From: an uncultured bacterium
GTDB lineage: Bacteria > RBG-13-66-14
Assembly: GCA_964436465.1 (NCBI GenBank)
Contig: CAYTCV010000001.1
Location: 31,852 to 95,851, forward strand
Reading direction: 5' to 3'
DNA: 64,000 nucleotides
The position numbers were made by a program, and so were the translations under genes. Positions 5,389-63,858 of this stretch are shown here, one piece after another (position 1 is the first letter of the stretch; the number at the start of each line of letters is the position of its first letter). The notes below the pieces were generated by a model. That model searched no databases and had not been told where the DNA came from. It saw nothing but the letters and a program-made list of their open reading frames with translations.

Positions 5389-5815
5389 AAAGGCCCCCTC
5401 TCCCCGCGGAAAACGGCCCCCTCCCCCCTTTGGGGGGAGGGTCGGGGAGGGGGGTGCCGATATTCCCTCTCCCTTTCAGGGAGCGGCGCGCCGACGGGAC
5501 TAAGGGTGAGGGCTACCTTAATAAACGCGGGCGGACCTAAAGGCCCGCCCCTACGTCATCGCAAATCGTGGGCATGGGTAGATGTATGTGTGTAAAAAGC
5601 GGCGGGGATAGGAATCCCCGCCCTACATTTACGCGAATGTCGGTGGATAAACAACCACGGGCGGGTGTGGACACCCGCCCCTACGGCATCGCATTTTGAC
5701 CAAGAAACGTAGGGCGGCAACCGGCGTGTGCCGCCCGGATTCATGGTGATGAAAAAAAGGGCGGGGTACAGAGCCCCCGCCCTACATTAAAAAAAGCGCG
5801 ATTTATTCCAACTCC
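5389..5815. repeat. cluster of REP-like GC-rich palindromic elements (locus 1)
   Basis: Multiple hairpins (ccctcccccctttggggggaggg; gcggcggggataggaatccccgcc; gggcgggtgtggacacccgccc; gggcggcaaccggcgtgtgccgccc; gggcggggtacagagcccccgccc), each followed by ctacg/ctacat (+catcgca) tails; also the motif actaagggtgagggctacctt. The same motifs recur at 8440-8712, 36190-36470, 42985-43018, 47900-48046 and 63525-63858. Confidence 0.7.
5753..5800. terminator. bidirectional rho-independent terminator downstream of panB
   Basis: A7 - hairpin gggcggggtacagagcccccgccc - tacattAAAAAAA; on the minus strand the hairpin is followed by T7 directly after the panB stop. Confidence 0.5.
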
Positions 5816-5823
5816 GTTTGCCT

Positions 5824-6639
5824 CTAGCTGAACCCGTGCTCCGCGCCGGGGAACTTCCCCTCCCGCACCTCGCCGGAATACTCCCCCACCGCCTTTTTCA
5901 TCATCTCGAAGCCGTCCAGGTAACGCTTCACGTGCTTGAGCTTCTTCCCCGGCAGCAGGTGCAGCATGTCGTGGAAGACGAGGATTTGGCCGTCGGTGTG
6001 CGGTCCGGCGCCGATGCCGATGGTGGGAATTCCCGCGGCCTCGGTGATGCCGCGCGCCAGCTCCGTCGGGATGAGCTCGAGCACGATGGCGAAGGCCCCG
6101 GCCCGCTCAATCTTCTTCGCCTCACGGAGCATCAGCTCGGCCTGGGCGTCGTCGCGCCCCTGCACCCTGTAACCGCCGATGCGGTGAATCGCCTGGGGGG
6201 TCAGGCCCAGGTGCCCCATCACCGGGATGCCGGCGTCGGATATCGCCGCGACTACGCGCTCGATTCCCGGCTGCCACTCGATTTTTACCCCCTGCGCCCC
6301 GCACGCGACGAATTCTCCGGCGTTGCGGACCGCCTCTGTCTCGCCCAACGAGAACGACAGGAAGGGCATGTCGCCCACGAGCATGGCCCGCTTCAGGGCC
6401 CGCTCCACGATTCGGGTGTGGTAGAGCATATCGTCCATCGTCACCCGGAGGGTGGTCGGCTCGCCGTGGATGACGTTGCCCAGGCTGTCGCCCACCAGGA
6501 CGAGGTCCACTCCCGCCGCGTCGCAGACCAGGGCGCTGGAGTAATCGTAAGCCGTCAGGCAGACGATTTTAGAACCCTCGGCCTTCTTCGCGGTAATCTG
6601 GGCGGCCGTCATCCGCTCCACGGACTGTTCCGCTCCCAT
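5824..6639 (-). CDS. panB: 3-methyl-2-oxobutanoate hydroxymethyltransferase
   Basis: Full-length similarity to PanB (LTAYDYSSA..., GDSLGNV..HG, GAQGVKIE, MGHLGLTPQ). Confidence 0.95.
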   Translation of the reverse strand: MGAEQSVERMTAAQITAKKAEGSKIVCLTAYDYSSALVCDAAGVDLVLVGDSLGNVIHGEPTTLRVTMDDMLYHTRIVERALKRAMLVGDMPFLSFSLGETEAVRNAGEFVACGAQGVKIEWQPGIERVVAAISDAGIPVMGHLGLTPQAIHRIGGYRVQGRDDAQAELMLREAKKIERAGAFAIVLELIPTELARGITEAAGIPTIGIGAGPHTDGQILVFHDMLHLLPGKKLKHVKRYLDGFEMMKKAVGEYSGEVREGKFPGAEHGFS

Positions 6640-7170: not shown

Positions 7171-8339
7171 CGTTCCCGAAGATGTTCTTCGATAAGTGCC
7201 AGGCCGCGTTCGAGCAATGGCTTGGGCTGCGTGAGCGCCAGGCGGATGCGGCCCCGCCCCGCCTCGCCGAAGGCCGAGCCGGGGGTTAGTACGACGCCCG
7301 TTTTATCCAACAGCTCCCGGCAGAAGGCGACGTCGTCCGTCTCGACTCCCGGAATTTTCAGCCAGAAGTACGTGGCGCCGCCCGGCTTCTCGTGCCGCCA
7401 ATCCATTCCGTCCAACAGGGCCGAGACGGTCTCCCGCCGGTCGGCGTACACGGACACCGCCTCCTCCACGGCCGCATCTCCATCGTTTAACGCCACCACG
7501 GCCGCCGCCAGGGACGGCGCGAAGATGCCGGCCTGGTAGTAAACCTCGATTTTCTTGAGCGCGGCCACCGCCTGCGGATGCCCCGCCGCGAAGGCGATGC
7601 GCACCCCGGCCATGCCGTAGGCCTTGGACAGGGTGTGGAACTCGACGGCCACCTCGGCGGCTCCGGGGATGGACAGAATCGAGAGCGGCCCGTGGCCGTC
7701 GAAGGCGATGAACTGGTAAGCGTTGTCGTAGATTATCAGGGTCTCGGTTCGCCCGGCCCACTCCACCAGCTCCGCGAGGAATTTCGGTGTCGTCGCCGCG
7801 CCCGTGGGATTGTTGGGATAGTTGAGGATGATGAAGCGCGCCCGCTCCGCGACCCCGTCCGGAATTTCCGCAAGAGCGGGATGCCACCCCAGCTCCGGCT
7901 TCAGCTCCAGCCGGTGGACCTCCAGCCCCGCCACCCGGGCCGAGCTCAGGTAGGACGGGAAGGCGGGGTCGGGCAGAATCACCAGGTCGCCCGGGTCGGC
8001 CAGCGCCAGGTTCGCGTGGGAGAGCCCCCCCTTGCTGCCGGGCAGGAGGACGATTTCATCGGCGGAAATTTTTGCGCCGAAGTGGCGGGAGTACCAGCCA
8101 CGGATGGCGCCGACAAGCTCCGTCGAGCCGGTGTAGGGAGTGTATGAATATTGGGCGGGGTCGGCCGCGGTTACGGCCAGTTCCTCGACGACCTCGGCGG
8201 CGGGGCCGATATCGGGACCCCCGCGGCCCAGGTCGATGATTTCCAGCCCTTTGGCCGCGGCATCCCGGCGCCAGAGGGCCGTCTCCGAGAAAATGTAGGG
8301 TTTGACCGAGGCGAGGCGCTGTGCGGGGGAAATATCCAC
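7167..8339 (-). CDS. PLP-dependent class I aminotransferase
   Basis: NYPNNPTG, YDNAY, SKAYGMAGVRIAF (PLP-lysine) and R near the C-terminus; 390 aa. Confidence 0.85.
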   Translation of the reverse strand: MDISPAQRLASVKPYIFSETALWRRDAAAKGLEIIDLGRGGPDIGPAAEVVEELAVTAADPAQYSYTPYTGSTELVGAIRGWYSRHFGAKISADEIVLLPGSKGGLSHANLALADPGDLVILPDPAFPSYLSSARVAGLEVHRLELKPELGWHPALAEIPDGVAERARFIILNYPNNPTGAATTPKFLAELVEWAGRTETLIIYDNAYQFIAFDGHGPLSILSIPGAAEVAVEFHTLSKAYGMAGVRIAFAAGHPQAVAALKKIEVYYQAGIFAPSLAAAVVALNDGDAAVEEAVSVYADRRETVSALLDGMDWRHEKPGGATYFWLKIPGVETDDVAFCRELLDKTGVVLTPGSAFGEAGRGRIRLALTQPKPLLERGLALIEEHLRER

Positions 8340-8439
8340 GGGTTTCTCCTTCGGGCGCCGCTATTGTAACAAATCGGCGGGTGCGGTCGGGGAGATGGAG
8401 GTGATAGACAGCAGCGGGCGACCATGGACGGTCACCCCT

Positions 8440-8712
8440 ACGTCAAATTGTCGTCGTCCGTAAATGTAGGGCGGGGCTTCTACGCCCCGCCGCTTTCACC
8501 CCTCACCCCGGCCCTCTCCCCAAAGGGGAGAGGGGGACGGAAGCCCTCACCCCATCCCCGTCGGTGTGCCGCTCCATAAACGTAGGGCGGGGATTCCCAT
8601 CCCCGCCGCTTCCATGCGATGCCATAGGGCGGGGATTTCAATCCCCGCCGCTTCAACGTTCCTTATCTCGACCATCACTCCACTCTCTCCCCGGTACGGA
8701 GAGAGGAATGGC
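8440..8712. repeat. REP-like palindromic element cluster (locus 2)
   Basis: cccctacgtc; gtagggcggggcttctacgccccgcc; ctctccccaaaggggagaggg; gtagggcggggattcccatccccgcc; gggcggggatttcaatccccgcc; ctctctccccggtacggagagagg. Spurious + strand ORFs 8564-8770 lie inside these repeats. Confidence 0.7.
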
Positions 8713-9499: not shown

Positions 9500-10355
9500 T
9501 TTTGCCCTCCTCGGGGCGGGGGGTCGTCATCATCAACTCCTGGGGAAGGGTGACGAACCCCCTCGACTCGCCGTATATTTCAGCGTAGCGGGGGTCAATG
9601 GTAATCGCCGTTTTATAGTAATTCTCGGATTTCGAGATGTCGCCCAGGGCCCGGTAGCACTGGTAGAGGTCGTAGTAGAGGGCGGGCGTGTCGGGCTGGA
9701 GCTCGAGGGCGGTATCGAGCCGCGCGATGGCGTCCGTGTACTTCCCGGCCAGGTAGTACAGGCGGGCGACGTTGCCGTAGGCGTGCGGCAGGTCCGGTCG
9801 CAGTTTGATGGCCGCCTCGTAGGCCTCGAGGGCGCCCGGAAGGTCGCGCAACTTTTCGCGGGCGCACCCCAGATTGAAGCTCGCCTCGTAGGATGACGGG
9901 TCGAGCTCGGCGGCGCGCTCAAAGGCTTTACAGGCCTCGTCGAAGCTCTGATTTATCTGGTGGATGACCCCCAGGTTTATCCAGGCCGGGGCGTAGTTCG
10001 GGTCGAGGCTGATAACGAGCCGGAAAGCCTCCTCGGCCTCCGGGTATTTTTGGGTCTGGGCCAGGCAGATGCCGTGGTTGAAATGGGCCTCGGCGAAGGT
10101 CGGTGCGAGCTCGGCGGCGCGGCCGAACTGGACGGCGGCCTGTTCCCAGTCCGGGGGTTCCTCCGCCAGAAACGCCTGGCCGAAGCGGAAACGCAGCTCC
10201 GGGTCGTCGGGGTTTTCCCGCACCTGGGCGGCCAGCTCGTCGAGCCCGTGGCCCGTCTTGGGCTCCTCGGGTGCGCAACCGGCGAGGAGCAGCGACAGGA
10301 CGGGGCAGAGGATTGAGAAGACCCGCGGGGGATGGGGGAAGGTGAATCGGCGCAT
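9489..10355 (-). CDS. TPR-repeat lipoprotein
   Basis: Signal + lipobox LLLAGCAPEE; repeated A..A...Y..A....P....A.NLG TPR-like units across 288 aa. Confidence 0.7.
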   Translation of the reverse strand: MRRFTFPHPPRVFSILCPVLSLLLAGCAPEEPKTGHGLDELAAQVRENPDDPELRFRFGQAFLAEEPPDWEQAAVQFGRAAELAPTFAEAHFNHGICLAQTQKYPEAEEAFRLVISLDPNYAPAWINLGVIHQINQSFDEACKAFERAAELDPSSYEASFNLGCAREKLRDLPGALEAYEAAIKLRPDLPHAYGNVARLYYLAGKYTDAIARLDTALELQPDTPALYYDLYQCYRALGDISKSENYYKTAITIDPRYAEIYGESRGFVTLPQELMMTTPRPEEGKNDN

Positions 10356-10456
10356 ATCAGTCCGTATACGGTGGAGGACTCCGTCGGGTTGCGACCGGGT
10401 CTGCGCAGCCGTTCTCCCCCTCGGGCGCGGTACCGAACGGATTTACAGAACCCGTC

Positions 10457-10478
10457 GAACGGACTAGAAAGTCCGTTC
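10457..10478. repeat. perfect palindrome GAACGGACT-AGAA-AGTCCGTTC, copy 1 of twin
   Basis: 9-4-9 inverted repeat followed by TCCAC; near-identical copy 62 bp downstream. Confidence 0.6.
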
Positions 10479-10518
10479 TCCACGTCATCTTCTCGGAGTG
10501 CGGGTTCTCCAACCCGCG

Positions 10519-10540
10519 GAACGGATTGGAGAATCCGTTC
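10519..10540. repeat. perfect palindrome GAACGGATT-GGAG-AATCCGTTC, copy 2 of twin
   Basis: Same 9-4-9 palindrome, also followed by TCCAC; half-sites GAACGGATT (10435) and CCGTTCTCC (10411) lie further upstream. Confidence 0.6.
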
Positions 10541-34601: not shown

Positions 34602-35260
34602 TGTCACTCCGTACGCTGGCCGTCACCGACGAAATCTACGCCTACCTGGAAAGCACCCTGCGGGAGCCCGCGGTCCTGCGGCGGCTCCGCGAGGAGACCT
34701 CGAAGCTGCCCAATCCGGAAATGCAAATCGCCCCGGAGCAGGGGCAGCTCATGGGGCTGCTGGTGGAGCTCATCGGGGCGAGGCTCTGCCTGGAGCTGGG
34801 CGTCTTCACCGGCTACAGCTCCACCGCGACGGCCCTGGCGCTGCCGCCGGACGGGAAGCTCATCGCCTGCGACAAGAGCCGTGAGTGGACCGACACGGCC
34901 CGGCGGTACTGGGCGGAGGCCGGGGTTTCGGATAAAATCGAGCTCCGACTCGGACCGGCCCTCCAGAGCCTGGATGCGCTTCTGGCCGAGGGCTACGCCG
35001 GGCGGTTCGACTTCGCCTTCATCGACGCGGACAAGGACAACTACGACGCGTACTACGAAAAGGTTCTGACCCTCCTGCGCCCCGGCGGTCTCGTGGCCCT
35101 GGACAACGCCCTGCGGCACGGGCGGGTGGCCGACGCCGCCGACGCCGACCCGGGGACGGTCGTCATCCGCGACCTGAACCGCAAAATCCGGGACGACGCC
35201 CGCGTGTCCATGTCCCTCGTTCCCATCGCCGACGGGCTGATGCTGGCGAGGAAGCGTTGA
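34601..35260 (+). CDS. class I SAM-dependent O-methyltransferase (caffeoyl-CoA OMT-like)
   Basis: Start reassigned to the ATG at 34601 (ATGA overlap with the upstream stop); LELGVFTGYSS SAM-binding motif, FIDADKDNY, LDNAL; the 5' extension in the track ORF is non-homologous. Confidence 0.8.
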   Translation: MSLRTLAVTDEIYAYLESTLREPAVLRRLREETSKLPNPEMQIAPEQGQLMGLLVELIGARLCLELGVFTGYSSTATALALPPDGKLIACDKSREWTDTARRYWAEAGVSDKIELRLGPALQSLDALLAEGYAGRFDFAFIDADKDNYDAYYEKVLTLLRPGGLVALDNALRHGRVADAADADPGTVVIRDLNRKIRDDARVSMSLVPIADGLMLARKR

Positions 35261-36165
35261 GTCGCGTCGCCGTAATCGGCTCCTCGATTCTGGATGTGGC
35301 GGTGGTTACACCGCGCTTCCCGCGTCCCGGCGAGACGGTGCGGCCCGACGCGCTCGGGCTCTACCCCGGCGGCAAGGGATTCAACCAGGCCCTGGCGCTG
35401 GCCCGGCTGGGGCACGAGGTCCTCTTCATCTCCAGATTGGGGGACGACCCGCTGGCGGAAGTGTTCCGCCGGGAGATGGCCGCCGCCGGGATTGACGGCG
35501 CCCACGTCGGGACGGACCCCGCGGGGACCGGCGTGGGGATTCCCATGATTGCCCCGGGCGGGGACTGCCGCATCATCGCTCACCCCCGGGCCAACCTCGC
35601 CCTGACGAAGGCCGACGTGGACGCCGCGGCGGATGAACTCCCCCGCTGCGCGGCGGTCCTGGCCCAGCTCGAGGTGCCGGTCGCGGTCGTGGCGCGGGCC
35701 TTCGCAATCGTGAAACAAGCCGGCGGCCTGACCATTTTAAACGCGGCTCCGGCGGCCGGACTTCCCGATGATATTTGGCCCCTCGTGGACGTGCTGGTGG
35801 TAAACGAGGTGGAGGCTTCGTTCTACGCCGGCGTGGAGGTGGCCGACGTTGAGTCGGCCGGAGACGCGCTTCCGCGATTGCGGAAACTCGGGCCGCCGCG
35901 CGTCGTCGTCACCCTGGGGGACAAAGGGCTGGTCGCCGGGGACGGGGAAGGGACTGTCATTCTCCCCGCGGTCGTGGTCGAGGCGGTGGATTCCACCGGG
36001 GCGGGGGACGCCTTCTGCGGGGCGCTGGCGGCGGGATTGGTGGAGGGGCTGTCTTTCGCGGATTCGTTGAAGCGGGCGAACGCGGCGGGGGCCTTCGCCG
36101 TGACGCGCATGGGCGCCGGACCGTCCATGCCGACGCGGGCGGAGCTGGACCGCTTTATAATGTAG
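35257..36165 (+). CDS. PfkB-family carbohydrate kinase (ribokinase-like)
   Basis: TTG start; VIGSSILDV, GGKGFNQALA, C-terminal DSTGAGDAFCGALAAGL ribokinase signatures. Confidence 0.75.
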   Translation: MSRVAVIGSSILDVAVVTPRFPRPGETVRPDALGLYPGGKGFNQALALARLGHEVLFISRLGDDPLAEVFRREMAAAGIDGAHVGTDPAGTGVGIPMIAPGGDCRIIAHPRANLALTKADVDAAADELPRCAAVLAQLEVPVAVVARAFAIVKQAGGLTILNAAPAAGLPDDIWPLVDVLVVNEVEASFYAGVEVADVESAGDALPRLRKLGPPRVVVTLGDKGLVAGDGEGTVILPAVVVEAVDSTGAGDAFCGALAAGLVEGLSFADSLKRANAAGAFAVTRMGAGPSMPTRAELDRFIM

Positions 36166-36189
36166 GGACCGACCGACCGGTCGGCCCGC

Positions 36190-36470
36190 GGTTTCCCTCT
36201 CCCCGTGGGAGCGGCTCGCCGACGGGCTACGGCGAGGGCTTCCATTGAAAAAGCGGCGGGGATGGGTATCTGCGGCCGAAGGCAAATCCCCGCCCTACAT
36301 TTCGGCATACTCCCTCCCCTCTTTGGGGGGAGGGCGGGGGAGAGGGGTGGAACGGCGGCCCGCAGAGGACTCGTCCTACGGGGCCGCCCTACGTCATCAC
36401 AACCCGGGGTGAGCGTCGGGATTGGAGGGGCGGGCGGGTGTGGACACCCGCCCCTACGTCGTAGCGAGCG
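36190..36470. repeat. REP-like palindromic element cluster (locus 3)
   Basis: ccctctccccgtgggag; gcggcggggatgggtatctgcggccgaaggcaaatccccgccctacat; ccctcccctctttggggggagggcggggg; gggccgccctacgtcatcaca; gggcgggtgtggacacccgcccctacgtcgtagcgagcg (the last unit is identical to one at 5650-5690). Confidence 0.7.
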
Positions 36471-36473
36471 CGT

Positions 36474-36514
36474 TTTAAAAAAACCCGGCGCCGTAAAGAC
36501 GCCGGGCGTTTTTT
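36474..36514. terminator. bidirectional rho-independent terminator
   Basis: A7-cccggcgccgtaaagacgccggg-cgT7; it serves tRNA-Ala on the minus strand and the ribokinase side on the plus strand. Confidence 0.5.
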
Positions 36515-36590
36515 TGGTGGACCCGAGGGGATTCGAACCCCTGACCTCCTCCACGCCAAGGAGGCGCGCTCCCAACTGCGCCACGGGCCC
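36515..36590 (-). tRNA. tRNA-Ala (anticodon GGC), CCA encoded
   Basis: Reverse complement GGGCCCGTGGCGCAGTTGGGAGCGCGCCTCCTTGGCGTGGAGGAGGTCAGGGGTTCGAATCCCCTCGGGTCCACCA folds as a cloverleaf: 7-bp acceptor stem, D-arm GCGC/GCGC, anticodon stem CCTCC/GGAGG with loop TTGGCGT, T-arm AGGGG-TTCGAAT-CCCCT. Confidence 0.9.
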
Positions 36591-36658: not shown

Positions 36659-37705
36659 CTAATGGCCGAAGAGCTCCTCGTACTTCTCCGCGACCGCTTT
36701 CACCTTCGGGTCGTCCTCGGTGTACTTGAGCGTGTTGTAGGTCAGGTAGAGGTCCTTGACCACGACCGGATTCTCGGGGTCCACCTCGAAGAAGGCCGTC
36801 TCCAGGTATTTCACGGCGATGACGAGGTCTTCGAAAGCCATGTCGTTGCGGGTGATGTAGTAGACTCCGGCGTCGGAGAGCGCCTCGGCGTAGTCCGTTC
36901 TGGCTTTCTCTGCGTTTTCGGCCGTCGCGGTGTTGTAGTCATTCTCGGCGTCGACGACGAGGGCCTTGTAGGCGTCCTCGGCGCCGGGGTCGCCCATGTC
37001 GTAGAGGACGCGGGCCCGGGTGCGTTCCACCTTGACGTAGCCCGGGAACTTCTCCAGCCCCATGTCGCAGACCTCGAGGGCCTTGTCGTAAAGCTTGGCC
37101 TCGGCGATGGTGGCGCTGCCGACGTAGTACACCGTCCGCTGGGTTTCTTCGTCGGGCATGGTGAAGCGTCCGACGGTCTCCATGTTGTACAGCTTCTGGA
37201 TGGCGAGGTAGTACTCCTCGGCGGCCTCGGTGTTGCGCTCCATCAGCCGCAGGCATTCGGCGGCGATGTAGAAGGCCTGGTAATGGTCGGGTTCCAGCTC
37301 TTCGGCGAACCGGGCGTAGGAGAGCGCCTTCTCGTATTCGCGGCCGTTTATGGCCTTGGCCGCTTCCTGGCGCGCCACGAGGAAGTACTCGAACTCGACG
37401 ATGATATCCTCCATCTCCTTGCGGGATTCGGGGTCGAGCGCGATGGCCATGTCGTAGTACTTCATGGCGGTCTCGAAGTCGTGGAGTTGGGCGTAGCCCC
37501 AGAAGAGCATGATGTAGGCGCAGGGCTCGTTCTTGCCTTCGCCGGCAATGTAGTCGAGCATCTTGTCCACGGCCCGCTGCGGCTCCTTGGCGCGGCGGAT
37601 GTCGGTGGCGGCCCCCTCGCACTGGTACGTGCGGGCGGTCTTGCAGGAGCCGACGAGTGCGAGGCACGCGGCGAGCAACAGAATCGCAACGAGGGTCTTA
37701 CGCAT
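36659..37705 (-). CDS. TPR-like repeat lipoprotein
   Basis: MRKTLVAILLLAACLALVGSCK lipoprotein signal; helical repeat-rich, K/E/Y-rich sequence; the + strand 418-aa ORF on the same DNA is low-complexity antisense. Confidence 0.6.
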   Translation of the reverse strand: MRKTLVAILLLAACLALVGSCKTARTYQCEGAATDIRRAKEPQRAVDKMLDYIAGEGKNEPCAYIMLFWGYAQLHDFETAMKYYDMAIALDPESRKEMEDIIVEFEYFLVARQEAAKAINGREYEKALSYARFAEELEPDHYQAFYIAAECLRLMERNTEAAEEYYLAIQKLYNMETVGRFTMPDEETQRTVYYVGSATIAEAKLYDKALEVCDMGLEKFPGYVKVERTRARVLYDMGDPGAEDAYKALVVDAENDYNTATAENAEKARTDYAEALSDAGVYYITRNDMAFEDLVIAVKYLETAFFEVDPENPVVVKDLYLTYNTLKYTEDDPKVKAVAEKYEELFGH

Positions 37706-42426: not shown

Positions 42427-42948
42427 CTACCTGGAGAGATTGTGGTAGTCGGTGTGCGGCCCCAGCTCCCGCACCTTGTCCGTGACCTCGTTGATGACCT
42501 TGACCCACTTGACGCCCTCGGCCGCCGAGACCCAGGAGAACTGGAGCCGGTCAAGGTCCAGGCCGAGGAAGCTGAAGAGCTCGCGGAAGACGGTCCAGCG
42601 CCGCCGGGCGTGGTAGTTTCCCGTGTTGTAGTGGCAGTCGCCGGGGTGGCAGCCGGAGACCAGCACGCCGTCGGCCCCGTTCTCGAAGGCCTTGAGCACG
42701 AACAGCGGGTCTATGCGCGCCGTGCAGGGCAGCTTGATGACGCGCACGTTCGCCTGGTACTTCATGCGGCTGGTGCCCGCCAGGTCCATGCCCAGGTAGG
42801 TGCACCAGTTGCAGACGAAGGCGACTATTCGCGGCTCCCACTCCCCGCCGGAGGGCTCCGGTTTTTCCGTCTTTTCCAGGGGGACGGCCGTATCCTCGAC
42901 GACCAGCTCGTCGGCGGCCTTGGTGGTCAGGGCTTCTTTCTCGGCCAC
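42427..42948 (-). CDS. mvhD: methyl-viologen-reducing hydrogenase delta subunit (MvhD)-like protein
   Basis: FVCNWCTY...CTARIDP...SGCHPGDCHY canonical MvhD cysteine pattern. Confidence 0.85.
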   Translation of the reverse strand: MAEKEALTTKAADELVVEDTAVPLEKTEKPEPSGGEWEPRIVAFVCNWCTYLGMDLAGTSRMKYQANVRVIKLPCTARIDPLFVLKAFENGADGVLVSGCHPGDCHYNTGNYHARRRWTVFRELFSFLGLDLDRLQFSWVSAAEGVKWVKVINEVTDKVRELGPHTDYHNLSR

Positions 42949-42984: not shown

Positions 42985-43018
42985 TCGGGCGGGGACGGCG
43001 CCCCGCCCCTACACCCGG
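42985..43018. repeat. REP-like hairpin between hdrA and mvhD (locus 6)
   Basis: gggcggggacggcgccccgcccctacaccc, same GGGCGGGG-loop-CCCCGCCC-CTAC architecture, sitting inside the operon. Confidence 0.55.
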
Positions 43019-43125: not shown

Positions 43126-45171
43126 TCACAGAGACTGAATCTCTGCGTAGAGCTGCCGGTCGTTGAAGCCGGCCAACTGAGCCGAGTTGGAGCGGCAGAC
43201 CGCCGTGCACAGCCCGCAGCCCTGGCACAGGCCCGGGTTGACCTCGGCCACCATCCGCAGCACCGCGCCCTCGCGGTTCTTGATTTCCTTCTCGGTGATG
43301 GCCTGGTAGGGACAGGCGTTGACGCAGTCCCAGCAGCCGATGCAGGTCGTCTCGTTGATGTGGGCTACGACGGGCTCGCGCTCCAGCTCGTCGAAGGCGA
43401 AGAGGTTCTGAATTTTCGAGGCGGCGGCGGAGCCCTGGGCCACGCAGTCCGGGATGTCCATGGGCCCCTGGCAGACCCCGGCGAGGAAGATGCCGCCCGT
43501 GTTCGTCTCCACGGGCCGCAGCTTCGGGTGGGCCTCGACGTAGAACCCATGCTGGTCGTAGCTGATGGAGAGCTTGCGGGCCAGCTCCTTGGCGTCGGGC
43601 TGGGGAATCATGGCCGGGGCGACCACGACCATGTCCACGGCCACCTCGAGCTCCTCCCCGGCGATGGTGTCGGCGCCCTTGAGGACCAGCTTGTCGCCGT
43701 CGCGGTAAATTCGGGATACGCGGCCGCGCAGGTAGAGCGCCCCGTCCTCCTCGATGGCCCGGCGGACGAACTCCTCGTAGCGCTTGCCGCCCGCGCGCAC
43801 ATCCATGTAGAACACCACCGGTTGCCCGTCGTGCACGGCGTGCTTGTAGAGCATGGTGTGCTTGGCGGTGTACATGCAGCAGATTTTACTGCAGAACTCG
43901 ATGCCCTTCTCCGGGCAGCGGGAGCCGATGCACTGCAGGAAGGCGATTGTTTGGGGGACCTTGTTGTCCGAGGGGCGCTTGAGCTGGCCCAGGGTGGGCC
44001 CCGACGAGGTCACGATGCGCTCGAACTGGAGCCCGTCGATGATGTCGGGGTCCTCGCCGTAGCCGTACTCGCCGTAGCCCGTGTACAGGCTCCCCTCCGG
44101 CTGGCGCCCCAACTCGTAGAGGGTGTAGCCGGTGGCCACGACGACGGCGCCGATGTCGAACTCCAGCAGCTCATCCTGCTGCTCGTAGTCGATGGCCCCG
44201 GTGGGGCAGACCTTTTCGCAGACCTTGCACTTGCCGGTCTGGAAGTAGGTGCAGTAATCGGGGTGGAGGACCGGGGTGTTGGGCACGGCCTGGGGGAAGG
44301 GGGAGTTGATGGCCTTGGTCATGGCGCCCTTCCGGACGTCGGAGGCCTCTTTGTAGCTGCCCTCGAACACCCCGAGGCCGGCCTCGAAGTAGTTGGGCAT
44401 CCGGGAGGGGCACTTCTCCTGGCACAGGCCGCAGCCGGTGCAGAGCTCGGCGTTGACGTAGCGGGCCCGGCGGCGGATGGTGGCCTTGAAGTTGCCGATG
44501 AAGCCCTCCAGCTTCTCCAGCTCGGCCCAGGAGATGATGGTGACCTTGGGGTGCTTGGCCGCCTCGACCATCCGCGGGGTGAGGATGCACTGGGAGCAGT
44601 CCAGGGTGGGGAAGGTTTCGTCGAGCTGGGACATGTGGCCGCCGATGGAGGGATTCCGCTCCAGGAGAATCACCTCGTGGCCGCCGTTGGCGATGTCCAG
44701 GGTGGCCTGGATGCCGGCGATTCCCCCGCCGATGACCAGCGCCCGCTTGGTCATCGGGACCCGGATGCGCTCCAGCGGCTCGTCGAAGAACGTCTTCTCC
44801 ACCATCATCTTCGTCAGCTCGACGGCCTTGGGGGTGCCCGTCTCCTTGGACGGGTGGACCCAGGAGCAGTGCTCGCGGATGTTTGCCACCTCGAGCATGA
44901 AGGGATTCAGGCCGCTGGACTGGGCGGTGGAGCGGAAGGTCTTCTCGTGCATGTGCGGGCTGCAGGCGGCAACCACCACGCCGTCCAGGTGATGCTCCTT
45001 GATGGCCTGGGCAATCATGTCCTGCCCCGGAGCCGAGCAGACGAACTTGTAGTCCGCCGCGTAGACCACCCCGGGGATTTTCTTGATTTCCTCGGCCACC
45101 CGGGGGCAGTCCACGGTGTCGCCGATGTTCTTGCCACAGTGGCAGACGAAAACGCCTATTCTGCGGGCCAT
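43126..45171 (-). CDS. hdrA: heterodisulfide reductase subunit A (HdrA), FAD + multiple 4Fe-4S
   Basis: 681 aa; N-terminal Cys cluster, FAD-binding VIGGGIAGIQA, ferredoxin motifs CTGCGLCQEKCP and CIGCWDCVNACP, CCG-adjacent thioredoxin-like inserted domain; the antisense 728-aa ORF is rejected. Confidence 0.95.
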   Translation of the reverse strand: MARRIGVFVCHCGKNIGDTVDCPRVAEEIKKIPGVVYAADYKFVCSAPGQDMIAQAIKEHHLDGVVVAACSPHMHEKTFRSTAQSSGLNPFMLEVANIREHCSWVHPSKETGTPKAVELTKMMVEKTFFDEPLERIRVPMTKRALVIGGGIAGIQATLDIANGGHEVILLERNPSIGGHMSQLDETFPTLDCSQCILTPRMVEAAKHPKVTIISWAELEKLEGFIGNFKATIRRRARYVNAELCTGCGLCQEKCPSRMPNYFEAGLGVFEGSYKEASDVRKGAMTKAINSPFPQAVPNTPVLHPDYCTYFQTGKCKVCEKVCPTGAIDYEQQDELLEFDIGAVVVATGYTLYELGRQPEGSLYTGYGEYGYGEDPDIIDGLQFERIVTSSGPTLGQLKRPSDNKVPQTIAFLQCIGSRCPEKGIEFCSKICCMYTAKHTMLYKHAVHDGQPVVFYMDVRAGGKRYEEFVRRAIEEDGALYLRGRVSRIYRDGDKLVLKGADTIAGEELEVAVDMVVVAPAMIPQPDAKELARKLSISYDQHGFYVEAHPKLRPVETNTGGIFLAGVCQGPMDIPDCVAQGSAAASKIQNLFAFDELEREPVVAHINETTCIGCWDCVNACPYQAITEKEIKNREGAVLRMVAEVNPGLCQGCGLCTAVCRSNSAQLAGFNDRQLYAEIQSL

Positions 45172-47899: not shown

Positions 47900-48046
47900 G
47901 GCCCCTGGTCTCCCTCTCCCCGTGGGAGAGGGATTAAGGGTGAGGGCTACCTTCTGCCCCCTCGCCCCTCTGGGGAGAGGGCTGGGGTGAGGGGAGGGCC
48001 GACCTAAACGGCGCGCCGTCGGTCGGCCCCTACGTAATCGCAGCGG
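47900..48046. repeat. REP-like palindromic element cluster (locus 4)
   Basis: ctccctctccccgtgggagaggg; ttaagggtgagggctacctt (same motif as at 5497); cccctctggggagaggg; ggtcggcccctacgtaatcgcagcggc. Confidence 0.65.
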
Positions 48047-53355: not shown

Positions 53356-54402
53356 ATGGCAGAGGGTACTGGTGGGGAAAAGGCGCGCAACCTGGAGGCG
53401 GCCTTCGCCCAAATCGAGCGGAAATACGGCAAAGGCGCGATTATGCGCATGGGCGGGGAAGGCGAACGGGACATAGACGTCATCCCCACCGGCTCTCTCT
53501 CCATAGACCGCGCCCTGGGCGTGGGCGGTCTCCCCCGGGGTCGAATCATCGAAATCTACGGCCCCGAGGCCAGCGGCAAGACCACCCTCACCCTGCACGT
53601 CATCGCCAGCGCCCAGTCGTTGGGCGGCATAGCGGCTTTCATCGACGTGGAGCACGCCCTGGACGTCAATTACGCGAAAAACCTCGGCATCAACATCGAG
53701 GAGCTGCTTGTCAGCCAGCCCGACACCGGGGAGCAGGCGCTGGAAATCGTGGAGATGCTCGTCCGCTCGGGCGCCGTGGACCTCGTGGTGGTGGACTCCG
53801 TGGCGGCCCTGGTCCCCCGGGTTGAAATCGAGGGCGAGATGGGCGACAGCCACGTGGCCCTGCAGGCCCGGCTGATGAGTCAGGCCCTGCGCAAGCTTAC
53901 CGGCGTGGTGAGCCGTTCCCACTGCTGCATCCTCTTCACCAACCAAATCCGCGAGAAGGTCGGCGTGGTTTTCGGCAATCCCGAGATAACACCGGGCGGA
54001 CGGGCGCTCAAGTTCTACACCACGGTGCGCATGGAGGTGCGCCGCATAGGCTCGTTGAAGGTCGGCGGCGACAACATCGGCAACCGCAGCCGGGTCAAGG
54101 TGGTCAAGAATAAGGTCGCCCCGCCGTTCAAGGAAGCCGAGTTCGACATCATTTTCGGTCAGGGCATCAACCGCGTGGGCGAGGTCATCGACCTCGGCGT
54201 GGAGGCCGGCGTCATCGAGAAGTCGGGGAGCTGGTTTTCATACGAAGGCGAGCGGTTGGGTCAGGGCAAGGAAAACGTCAAGGAGTCGCTCGACGAAAAG
54301 CCGGAGATGCTGGCGACCATCGAGGCCAAGGTGCGCGACTTCTTCGGCATCCCGGCGCAGAAGGGCGCCGCGAAGCCCAAGAAAGAGGCCGCCGCGGAGT
54401 GA
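53356..54402 (+). CDS. recA: recombinase RecA
   Basis: GPEASGKTT Walker A, full-length RecA similarity including the L1/L2 loop regions. Confidence 0.97.
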
Positions 54403-54477
54403 CCGTCCGTGGTTTTCGGGGCGCATATACGGCGGGGGCTGCGGTCCCCGTTTTTTACCGCGCCCTTGTACGACGCG

Positions 54478-54510
54478 AAAAAAAACGGCGCCCGGGCGCC
54501 GACTTTTTTA
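54478..54510. terminator. bidirectional rho-independent terminator between recA and the convergent membrane-protein gene
   Basis: A8-CGGCGCCCGGGCGCCG (perfect palindrome)-ACTTTTTT. Confidence 0.5.
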
Positions 54511-54530
54511 AAAATTTTCCCAAGGGATGC

Positions 54531-63524: not shown

Positions 63525-63858
63525 CGCACCCGCCCGATGCTTCCGGTGCATAAATGTAGGGCGGGGATTTTAATCCCCGCCGCTTTGTTTACATGGCAGC
63601 CATCACCCCTGACCCCTCTCCCACAGGGAGAGGGGGGACCGCTACACCCCCCTCCCTAGCCCTCCCCCCAAAGAGGGGAGGGGATTGGCGGCAACCCTCG
63701 CCCCAAATGTGTTTGCGATGACGTAGGGGCGGGGCTCCGTCCCCGTCCGTTTTGCCTCTGAATGTAGGGCGGGGAATCCTTTCCCCGCCGCGTCTACCCT
63801 CACCCTAGCCCTCTCCCTAGCCCGTAAGCGCGCTTCCCCCCAGAGGGGGGAGGGGACT
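63525..63858. repeat. REP-like palindromic element cluster (locus 5), copies in both orientations
   Basis: gtagggcggggattttaatccccgcc; cccctctcccacagggagagggg; cctccctagccctccccccaaagaggggagggg; gcgatgacgtaggggcgggg (reverse complement of ccccgcccctacgtcatcgc); gtagggcggggaatcctttccccgcc; ctaccctcaccc (reverse complement of gggtgagggtag). Confidence 0.7.

Follow-up and report, generated by a model that had tools for sequence, protein, structure and literature searches.

GTAG-tagged palindromes and BoxC/TM motifs form mosaic intergenic clusters, probably of the REP/RAYT kind, in an uncultured Coatesbacteria-like bacterium

Repetitive extragenic palindromic (REP) elements and their REP-associated tyrosine transposases (RAYTs) have been studied in detail in Proteobacteria and recorded in a few other phyla. 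In the bacterial interspersed mosaic elements (BIMEs) of E. coli, REP types Y and Z alternate in orientation and are accompanied by S, L and r motifs and by a site for integration host factor (IHF). Genomes with several families of GTAG-tagged REPs hold one repeat-specific RAYT clade per REP family, and Opitutus terrae (Verrucomicrobia) is rich in GTAG REPs (Di Nocera et al. 2013, PMC3733652). Another intergenic repeat, BoxC, also known as PIT and now as the triplex motif (TM), occurs in >260 genomes and is linked to local genomic instability; BoxC elements block DNA polymerase in vitro, and no transposase or integrase remnant has ever been found beside one (Holder et al. 2015, PMC4666352). 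Here we analyze a stretch of 64,000 nucleotides (the window) from an uncultured bacterium of the GTDB lineage RBG-13-66-14 (contig CAYTCV010000001.1), in which an earlier note, made from the sequence alone, had pointed to GC-rich palindromes at six intergenic loci: 5389-5815, 8440-8712, 36190-36470, 42985-43018, 47900-48046 and 63525-63858, here clusters 1 to 6. These loci are very probably mosaic, BIME-like clusters of GTAG REPs cognate to RAYTs, intermixed with BoxC/TM motifs. GTAG REP families that have cognate RAYTs are already known as a type of system; this one belongs to a lineage for which we found no prior description, and its departures from published accounts are a polar coupling of BoxC to REPs and head-to-tail arrays.

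A strict scan for GTAG directly followed by a perfect GC-rich hairpin of at least 7 bp, read on the tag-first strand, yielded 17 matches in the window, compared with a mean of 4.4 and a maximum of 10 in 100 first-order Markov shuffles. Sixteen lie within the six loci, and all 16 begin GTAGGG; the 17th, at 36968, falls within a coding region and looks like a chance match. With two variants added, 8624 (ATAG tag) and 36162 (one stem mismatch), the window holds 18 REP units, all in the six loci or at their edges, two of them (8416-8441 and 36162-36187) beginning just outside the bounds first given. The pattern GGGCGG-N6-20-CCGCCC matched nine times against 1.9 expected. GC-rich hairpins were also seen on reading all six loci, and the view that they are not a product of chance is borne out by these counts. 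The claim of several hairpins per locus holds for four loci, with clusters 4 and 5 carrying one REP-type hairpin each, and the claim of at least 20 units has to be divided, as 18 are REPs and about 12 of the units counted are BoxC/TM motifs. The CTACG or CTACAT noted after the hairpins is explained by CTAC(G/A)T being the reverse complement of the 5' GTAG tag. The CATCGCA tail recurs as well, the loci having 7 copies of TGCGATGACGTAGGG where 1.8 would be expected in the whole window, and the unit reported as identical at 5650 and 36430 is indeed so: GGGCGGGTGTGGACACCCGCCCCTACG is shared over 27 nt by the copies at 5659 and 36432. Two further words recur in the window, TAAGGGTGAGGGCTACCTT exactly at both 5501 and 47935, and CCCTCTCCC-N3-8-GGGAGAGGG with three exact matches against 0 expected.

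Each unit in the window consists of GTAG, a GC stem of 7-9 bp and a loop of 4-22 nt. The tag is GTAG in 17 of the 18 units and ATAG in one. Family 1 has the form AAT, then GTAG-GGCGGGGA-N4-TCCCCGCC, and its canonical copy reads (A)AAT-GTAG-GGCGGGGAn-NNNN-n'TCCCCGCC-GCTTT; family 2 has TGCGATGAC before GTAG-GGGCGGG or GTAG-GGGCCGACC. Folded as single-stranded DNA, the units reach -8 to -14 kcal/mol. For a genome search we used a pattern that fixed eight of the nine stem pairs and left the ninth free. This ninth, closing pair covaries across 83 copies (UA 44, CG 23, AU 10, UG 1, unpaired 5) to a degree reached by none of 500 shuffles, and therefore the hairpin itself is maintained. Column C34 of the CTAC is conserved in 90% or more of the 83 aligned copies; the CTA columns next to it were set by the search pattern. 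A covariance model built from these 83 non-identical copies and run on the window without filters, as the earlier note had proposed, gave 8 strong matches (26-63 bits) and several weak ones. The strong matches, and the weak ones that we count as REPs, lie in the six loci or at their edges, while matches with E>1 at 8288, 29092 and 55797 lie outside and look like chance. At gathering thresholds Rfam recognized only a tRNA-Ala in the window; the REP and BoxC repeats are covered by no known RNA family.

The two families are not peculiar to the window. Among 257 units with GTAG or ATAG and a hairpin, collected from ~395 kb of Coatesbacteria-group loci together with the window, two super-families split cleanly: super-family 1 (n=118) has the stem GGCGGGG and the 5' flank taAAT before GTAG, and super-family 2 (n=133) has the stems GGGCGGG, GGGCCGA/GGGCGAC or GGCGGC and the 5' flank TGCGATGAC. 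Flanks segregate with stems, AAT preceding GTAG in 75 of the 118 family-1 units and the family-2 consensus being TGCGATGAC before GTAG. Both super-families are present in the window.

RAYT genes adjoin these same REPs in relatives. A rough tblastn screen of the fetched loci, followed by checks with real homologs, identified an HUH/Tyr transposase gene of 124-155 amino acids beside family-1 REPs in four contigs of the Coatesbacteria group (L055, L106, L108 and L008). In the three contigs that include the 3' end of the gene (L055, L106 and L108), inverted family-1 REPs stand on both sides of it, and the site is syntenic, downstream of the same aldehyde dehydrogenase gene; in L008, from CSMAG_1439, the 5' REP is present and the reading frame stays intact until the contig breaks off. 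In L055, from RBG_13_66_14, a 530-bp segment bracketed by ATGTAGGGCGGGGACTTTAGTCCCCGCCGCTTT and its inverted copy GGCGGGGACTAAAGTCCCCGCCCTACATT encodes an HUH/Tyr protein (LPDHVHLLL ... YILANPVR) that is frameshifted in an A-run, the frame being lost through a +/-1 shift within eight consecutive A's (L055 3890-3905, MFAF01000041.1). Its intact homologs P0001 and P0002 are 85% and 76% identical to it and show the same REP-gene-REP layout. The proteins carry the HUH motif (HVH, in LPDHVHLLL) and Y-x3-NP (in YILANP) and match Pfam Y1_Tnp. Against the NCBIfam model NF047646, 'REP-associated tyrosine transposase' (cut-off 80), P0001 scored 86.9 bits, P0002 77 and an Opitutales protein 74.6, whereas the IS200 model gave 14-19 bits against a cut-off of 55. 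The best PDB match of P0002 is 4er8, E. coli TnpAREP, with the HUH and Y-x3-NP regions aligned at weak similarity (E = 0.004). A second RAYT clade, P0005 (44% identity), is flanked in L114 by GTAGGGGCGGGTGTCTACACCCGCCC, which is the family-2 unit of the window save one loop base. The four Coatesbacteria-group genes (L055 3796-4262, L106 3001-3468, L108 1611-2075, L008 4095-4466) have 45-51% GC, 10-19 points below their flanks at 61-66%, and the Opitutales RAYTs lie 6-7 points under theirs; the low GC could reflect foreign origin or a constraint on the gene.

The repeats also extend far beyond the window. Scanning GTDB species genomes, we found the exact core GCGGCGGGGA-N6-TCCCCGCCCTA in at least 98 stretches, and its hosts among the matches listed are Ca. 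Coatesbacteria metagenome-assembled genomes (MAGs; RBG_13_66_14, CSMAG_1439), two unclassified MAGs and Opitutales (Verrucomicrobiota). One of the unclassified MAGs, SRP214966_co4_317, shares 88-92% identity with the window across 8 kb and 87-92% with RBG_13_66_14, which places the window in this genus-level group. The Opitutales copies are a distinct sub-type: the near-same core GTAGGGCGGGGAC stands beside RAYT genes in Opitutales MAGs, as doublets that flank proteins 26-29% identical to the Coatesbacteria RAYT, a find that fits the known richness of Opitutus terrae in GTAG REPs. Around two of these Opitutales genes (L094 2700-3420, L035 280-800) two stems, GTAGGGCGGGGACTCCGTTCCCCGCC and GCGCGGAGCGGAGTCCGCGCCCTAC, alternate in the doublets. 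Despite the distance of their RAYTs, the Opitutales and Coatesbacteria families have a near-identical GTAGGGCGGGGA core. The literature naming the phylum, as far as it was accessible to us, consists of metagenomic surveys, a review and a text-mining resource, and in these parts we found no description of REPs in the Coatesbacteria group.

Placement of the copies is mostly extragenic and at gene 3' ends. Of the canonical copies with a called gene on either side, 20 are between convergent genes, 16 between tandem and 1 between divergent ones, and only 1 of 84 copies lies inside an open reading frame (ORF). Another 46 of the 84 have no called gene on one side, which puts them close to the end of a contig or locus. 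Exact-sequence look-ups with hdrA and mvhD gave no match, and one with panB gave only short contigs. These metagenome contigs of the same species (L001-L006, 99.6-99.9% identical, carrying window 5824-6639) all end within cluster 1, and many CAZNZF01 and DAOVLG01 contigs likewise end inside REP/BoxC clusters. Such contig ends are the usual sign of a high-copy repeat, and REP/BoxC repeats are a practical cause of MAG fragmentation in short-read assemblies of the Coatesbacteria-like lineage.

The earlier note had compared the palindromes to REP/BIME elements mobilized by RAYTs in Proteobacteria. The RAYT-associated character is upheld by the anatomy of GTAG plus palindrome, the extragenic copies at 3' ends, the spread over many genomes and the RAYT gene flanked by the same REPs; the hosts are Coatesbacteria-like bacteria and Opitutales, not Proteobacteria. 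Neither outcome that the earlier note had named as refuting its reading, copies confined to the window or a resemblance limited to generic GC-rich stems, was observed. The catalytic steps, present-day mobility and any function at the RNA level are inferred. The REPs would be the cognate repeats of RAYTs encoded once per genome in the Coatesbacteria-like lineage. By analogy with E. coli TnpAREP, for which action on folded single-stranded REPs is described (PMC3479197, PMC8266576), the enzyme would recognize the folded hairpin and its GTAG on single-stranded DNA, and would cleave and rejoin at the REP, so that REPs in the intergenic DNA at the 3' ends of genes would be gained by copying, lost and reshuffled. 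BoxC/TM motifs stand directly 5' of many REPs with a single polarity.

Several observations weigh against this account. No RAYT-like ORF was found in the 64-kb window using consensus queries and 24 real RAYT homologs, so the RAYT search that the earlier note proposed succeeded in the four related contigs and failed in the window, and a cognate RAYT in the organism itself is presumed from its relatives (a group of 87-92% nucleotide identity). The frameshift in the RBG_13_66_14 RAYT is either a pseudogene or a homopolymer assembly error, and the system may be decaying in some members. Because adjacent REP pairs are mostly head-to-tail, the inverted-doublet REPIN model is not the main pattern in the Coatesbacteria group: the window has 8 head-to-tail, 1 head-to-head and 2 tail-to-tail pairs (n=11), and the loci of the group have 62, 40 and 32. 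The corresponding figures for the Opitutales loci, 0, 17 and 7, fit the REPIN doublet. REP orientation is biased neither relative to transcription (9 vs 7) nor, in the window, relative to strand (10 vs 8, with a uniformly positive GC skew), and therefore the data give no sign of a directional function or of a preference for the lagging strand. Finally, comparison of the window with a sister MAG and other relatives showed no clean insertion polymorphism with defined boundaries, orthologous spacers being replaced and not interrupted.

The second component of the clusters had been described as a second hairpin type and a linear motif. Both do recur alongside the REPs as claimed, but they are not REP variants; they are the known BoxC/TM motif. 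In a BLAST search of window 47905-47995 against 5426 complete E. coli genomes, every genome matched, the median being 19 sites per genome and the identity 87% over 53 nt; one example is in the uxuR-uxuB spacer. E. coli TM_ECO copies (formerly BoxC/PIT) are tabulated by Holder et al. 2015 (Table 1, PMC4666352), e.g. CCCTCGCCCCTCTGGGGAGAGGGTTAGGGTGAGGGG, from which window 47959-47994 differs at 2 of 36 positions; it is identical at 34 of 36 to TM_ECO 9, 16, 19 and 22. The architecture in the window, CCCTC(T/G)CCC-loop-GGGAGAGGG-linker-GGGTGAGGG, is that of TM_ECO, and judged from their sequence the copies are potentially triplex-forming, purine-rich hairpin motifs. Five of the six loci contain the motif, in six short-form, three long-form and roughly three degenerate copies, nine of which match the strict pattern. 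The long form contains a GC palindrome of 12-14 nt (CGGCGCGCCGAC or variants) within the second block, as GGGAG-insert-GGG; it occurs at 5465-5512, 36195-36238 and 63809-63854 as well as in several related genomes, and was not seen in the E. coli TM_ECO table.

BoxC and REPs are coupled with a polarity. Among 49 strict BoxC matches in the Coatesbacteria-group loci and the window, 34 (69%) follow the order BoxC, A-rich linker, hairpin, CTAC, with the REP within 60 nt of the G-rich end; 2 have the opposite polarity, 5 have a REP on the other side only and 8 have none. The commonest spacing is 5-10 nt, a BoxC-type element lies just upstream of 41 of 73 family-1 REPs, and all nine strict-pattern copies of the window conform to the polarity. 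No BoxC was found in 196 kb of Opitutales loci bearing a related REP, and the coupling is therefore lineage-specific. These regularities, along with the polymerase block reported in vitro and the lack of any transposase near BoxC elsewhere, are what would favor a composite module of ~80-110 nt (BoxC hairpin, G-rich tail, A-rich linker and REP) as the mobile unit, or a preferential insertion of REPs beside BoxC; in this second version, the BoxC structure would stall replication and expose single-stranded DNA for REP insertion. Either way the spread of BoxC would be tied to RAYT, with BoxC having traveled together with RAYT-mobilized REPs in the Coatesbacteria-like lineage or having served as their preferred landing site. 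We regard this proposal as tentative and on balance unlikely. BoxC is absent from about 44% of the REPs and from the REPs on either side of RAYT genes, 8 of the 49 BoxC copies stand without a REP, and no presence/absence polymorphism of a whole composite was seen. Moreover, BoxC sub-type showed no linkage with REP loop or tail sub-type in 73 units, which argues against rigid co-replication. With neither sub-type linkage nor BoxC at the RAYT-flanking REPs, a composite moving as one piece and one element targeting the other are not distinguishable.

Cluster content turns over between relatives, as the comparison of orthologous intergenic sites suggested by the earlier note made clear. The sister MAG has a 230-bp REP/BoxC cluster in the spacer behind the gene that ends at 54402, where the window has none, and other orthologous 3' ends carry different clusters in genomes that are ~80% identical. 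In the window this spacer (54403-54530, between convergent genes) holds two back-to-back terminator-like hairpins, 54448-54488 and AAAAAAAACGGCGCCCGGGCGCCGACTTTTTT, and a REP-like relic without GTAG, ACGGCGGGGGCTGCGGTCCCCGTTTTTT. Turnover of this kind would also be produced by fossil REPs that no longer move, in clusters that change by slippage, recombination and deletion around a decaying RAYT remnant. The frameshifted RAYT of RBG_13_66_14 is in keeping with this, spacers differ by replacement and copy number where clean insertions might be looked for, and head-to-tail arrays are what slippage or unequal recombination would be expected to produce. Nevertheless, the RAYT ORF is intact at the syntenic site in two or more further genomes, whose proteins are 76-85% identical, and this implies purifying selection; many copies (83 exact cores) have the same core, and two units 30 kb apart agree over 27 nt, and we consider it improbable that the REPs are fossils.

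Some copies could affect transcripts. On the minus strand a terminator scan gave one good match, 5783-5758 plus T7, downstream of panB, and three more minus-strand REPs pass lax criteria with weaker T-tracts; no REP passes on the plus strand. The bidirectional terminator that had been proposed at 5753-5800 was rejected, since its T-run is on the minus strand only. Family 1 has a consensus ending in GCTTTTT on the tag-first strand, and its copies are therefore weakly terminator-like in that orientation by construction; REP copies with a T-run after the hairpin (5746-5785, minus strand) would act as intrinsic terminators. A single REP, 42987-43012, is located between hdrA and mvhD, which confirms the placement of one copy inside the hdr operon: Pfam identifies 43126-45171 as HdrA-like and 42427-42948 as MvhD, and the REP is 38 nt upstream of the mvhD GTG start, with no T-run after the hairpin. 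Three relatives (MvhD 82-90% identical) have a REP at the same position in the context TATCCGGnnGTAGGGGCGGG, with varying stem and loop sequences and 1-4 further units alongside, giving 1, 2, 5 and 2 units per spacer in the window and the three relatives. Such operon-internal copies would form a stable stem in the mRNA that might slow 3'-5' decay or modulate downstream expression; the conserved position is compatible with a role in the transcript and is no proof of one. In one relative (L109, 339-341) the stop codon of hdrA is the TAG of a REP's GTAG, and in the window the ORF 35257-36165 likewise ends in the TAG (36163-36165) of REP 36162; an inserted REP can therefore set the stop codon of a gene or take its place.

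It is very improbable that the hairpins as a whole are ordinary Rho-independent terminators, or convergent GC-rich stems of a 66% GC genome without common origin or mobility: the T-rich tracts after several copies on one strand (5783-5758 plus T7 passing the scan), the GCTTTTT end and the location of most copies at gene 3' ends would suit it, but stem, GTAG and 9-nt flanks are identical across loci and genomes, many copies lack a T-run (42987, 47996), orientation is random relative to transcription, several tandem copies share a spacer, the same repeat brackets a RAYT gene, and genuine terminators of the window (36477-36515, 54448-54488) look different, so that the conserved tag and flanks and the RAYT association largely refute it. 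Two other candidates were rejected, miniature inverted-repeat transposable elements because the units are single hairpins of 26-45 nt with an asymmetric GTAG and show no flanking direct duplication in the 83-copy alignments, and a CRISPR array because the units are unevenly spaced and point in both directions, and the sequence between them is repetitive too; no cas gene was noticed in the window, whose genes were not systematically annotated.

The composition of the individual clusters is as follows, with REPs found by the strict scan unless stated otherwise and bit scores from the covariance model. Cluster 1 begins with a short-form BoxC/TM matching the BoxC pattern on the plus strand (5419-5452, CCCTCCCCCC-TTT-GGGGGGAGGG-TC-GGGGAGGGG), followed on the same strand and by the same pattern by a long form with the CGGCGCGCCGAC insert and the end GGGTGAGGGCTACCTT (5465-5519), 9 nt 5' of the first REP. 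That REP (5529-5563, minus) belongs to family 2, TGCGATGAC before GTAG-GGGCGGGCC-TTTA-GGTCCGCCC, and has a 9-bp stem with one G-T pair. A canonical family-1 copy comes next (5601-5626, minus, 62.6 bits), GTAG-GGCGGGGAT-TCCT-ATCCCCGCC and then GCTTTTT on the minus strand, with a DNA fold of -11.8 kcal/mol (z -3.7). The family-2 unit at 5659-5693 (minus, also supported by folding), TGCGATGCC before GTAG-GGGCGGGTG-TCCA-CACCCGCCC, has the core of unit 36432. A REP with a GGCGGC stem at 5709-5735 (plus, also found by the covariance model and folding) has the opposite orientation to its neighbors, and the last unit (5746-5785, minus, also found by the terminator scan), GTAG-GGCGGGG...CCCCGCC and then T7, is terminator-like for the minus-strand panB (5824-6639, Pfam).

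At cluster 2, a family-2 REP, GTAG-GGGTGACCG-TCCA-TGGTCGCCC, lies at 8416-8441 (minus, scan and fold), and a family-1 REP with a 6-nt loop at 8466-8491 (plus, 43.3 bits, scan and fold). Directly 5' of the latter on the minus strand is a short-form BoxC/TM (8501-8534, minus, BoxC pattern), after which come a partial long form (8544-8578) and a degenerate copy (8683-8705). A canonical family-1 REP (8582-8607, plus, 56.2 bits) is head-to-tail with the ATAG-tagged unit (8615-8649, plus, 51.4 bits by the model), which joins a family-1 stem to the 5' flank TGCGATGCC. Cluster 3 opens at its edge with the mismatched family-2 unit GTAG-GGACCGACC-GACC-GGTCGGCCC (36162-36187, plus, 14.3 bits by the model). 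A long-form BoxC/TM (36195-36238, plus) is 5' of a REP with a family-1 stem and an enlarged loop of 22 nt (36255-36298, minus, 31.9 bits), and a short form (36312-36345, plus) is 5' of a REP with a GGCGGCC stem, a structured loop of 19 nt and the flank TGTGATGAC before GTAG (36354-36401, minus, scan and fold), both BoxC copies matching the BoxC pattern; the family-2 unit at 36432-36457 (minus) is the same as unit 5659. Between this cluster and a minus-strand tRNA-Ala(GGC) at 36515-36590 is a symmetric A7-hairpin-T7 bidirectional terminator, 36477-36515, which adjoins the tRNA gene.

Cluster 4 is the single minus-strand REP of the hdrA-mvhD spacer, GTAG-GGGCGGGG-CGCCGT-CCCCGCCC. Cluster 5 has a short-form BoxC/TM with a CTACCTT tail (47912-47953, plus, BoxC pattern), the TM_ECO-like copy CCCTCGCCCCTCTGGGGAGAGGGCTGGGGTGAGGGG (47959-47994, plus, identified by BLAST and the TM_ECO table) and a family-2 REP with a 16-nt loop, TGCGATTAC before GTAG-GGGCCGACC...GGTCGGCCC (47996-48042, minus, scan and fold). 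In cluster 6 a canonical family-1 REP followed by GCTTTGTTT (63556-63581, plus, 62.6 bits) precedes two minus-strand BoxC/TM copies (63606-63682), of which 63649-63682 matches the strict pattern and 63606-63637 is degenerate. There follow a family-2 REP, TGCGATGAC before GTAG-GGGCGGGG...CCCCGTCC (63714-63748, plus), a canonical family-1 REP (63764-63789, plus, 55.3 bits) and a long-form BoxC/TM that is 5' of this REP on the minus strand (63809-63854, minus, BoxC pattern). Elsewhere in the window, at 10457-10540, a perfect palindrome of 22 nt with the same 5 nt after it occurs in two copies 62 nt apart, GAACGGACTAGAAAGTCCGTTC-TCCAC and GAACGGATTGGAGAATCCGTTC-TCCAC, in the spacer upstream of a minus-strand gene ending near 10355-10442; it looks like a paired operator or another small repeat unrelated to the REPs.

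The REP/RAYT system documented here, in an uncultured candidate phylum, comprises two REP families and two RAYT clades. BoxC is conserved from E. coli to Cyanobacteria without an explained mode of spread and is near base-for-base alike in E. coli and the window; a lineage in which it stands beside a transposase-associated repeat makes the question of its spread testable. If BoxC did travel with the REPs or serve as their preferred landing site, the oriented BoxC-linker-REP would represent a composite non-autonomous element of a new kind, and BoxC would for the first time be linked mechanistically to a transposase.

Overall, the closest described systems are the GTAG REPs and REPtrons (Nunvar 2010; Di Nocera, De Gregorio, Rocco 2013, PMC3733652), which share the 5' GTAG, a GC stem of 6-13 bp with a short loop, several stem sub-families per genome, a location between convergent or tandem genes, RAYTs flanked by cognate REPs and repeat-specific RAYTs; the units of the window differ in their extended conserved 5' flanks (AAT or TGCGATGAC), their regular coupling to BoxC and their candidate-phylum host. 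The E. coli REP/BIME system and its TnpAREP (RayT/YafM; 4er8; PMC3479197, PMC8266576) is alike in its mosaic intergenic clusters, GTAG hairpins and single-copy HUH/Tyr enzyme, while its REPs are unrelated in sequence save GTAG and the RAYTs of the lineage resemble TnpAREP weakly in sequence. Five of the six loci resemble BIMEs in interleaving REPs with another motif, here BoxC/TM instead of the E. coli partner motifs, but units within a cluster mostly share one orientation and show no Y/Z-type alternation. With the REPIN-RAYT systems of Pseudomonas and Enterobacteria (Bertels and Rainey 2011, PMC3116915; Bertels 2017, PMC5581495) the lineage has in common abundant cognate repeats and a single-copy, apparently vertically inherited RAYT at a conserved site, here the aldehyde dehydrogenase neighborhood in three genomes. 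The REPIN unit is an inverted REP doublet, whereas inverted pairs are a minority in the window (3 vs 8 head-to-tail). BoxC/PIT/TM_ECO (Hoyne 2000; Holder et al. 2015, PMC4666352; G4-hairpin switch, PMC5100583) is likewise intergenic, present in several copies and built of three blocks. In E. coli it occurs alone or as inverted A+B pairs with no mobility gene nearby, whereas in the window it stands beside REPs in a fixed polarity and also has a long form with the 12-14 nt CGGCGCGCCGAC insert.

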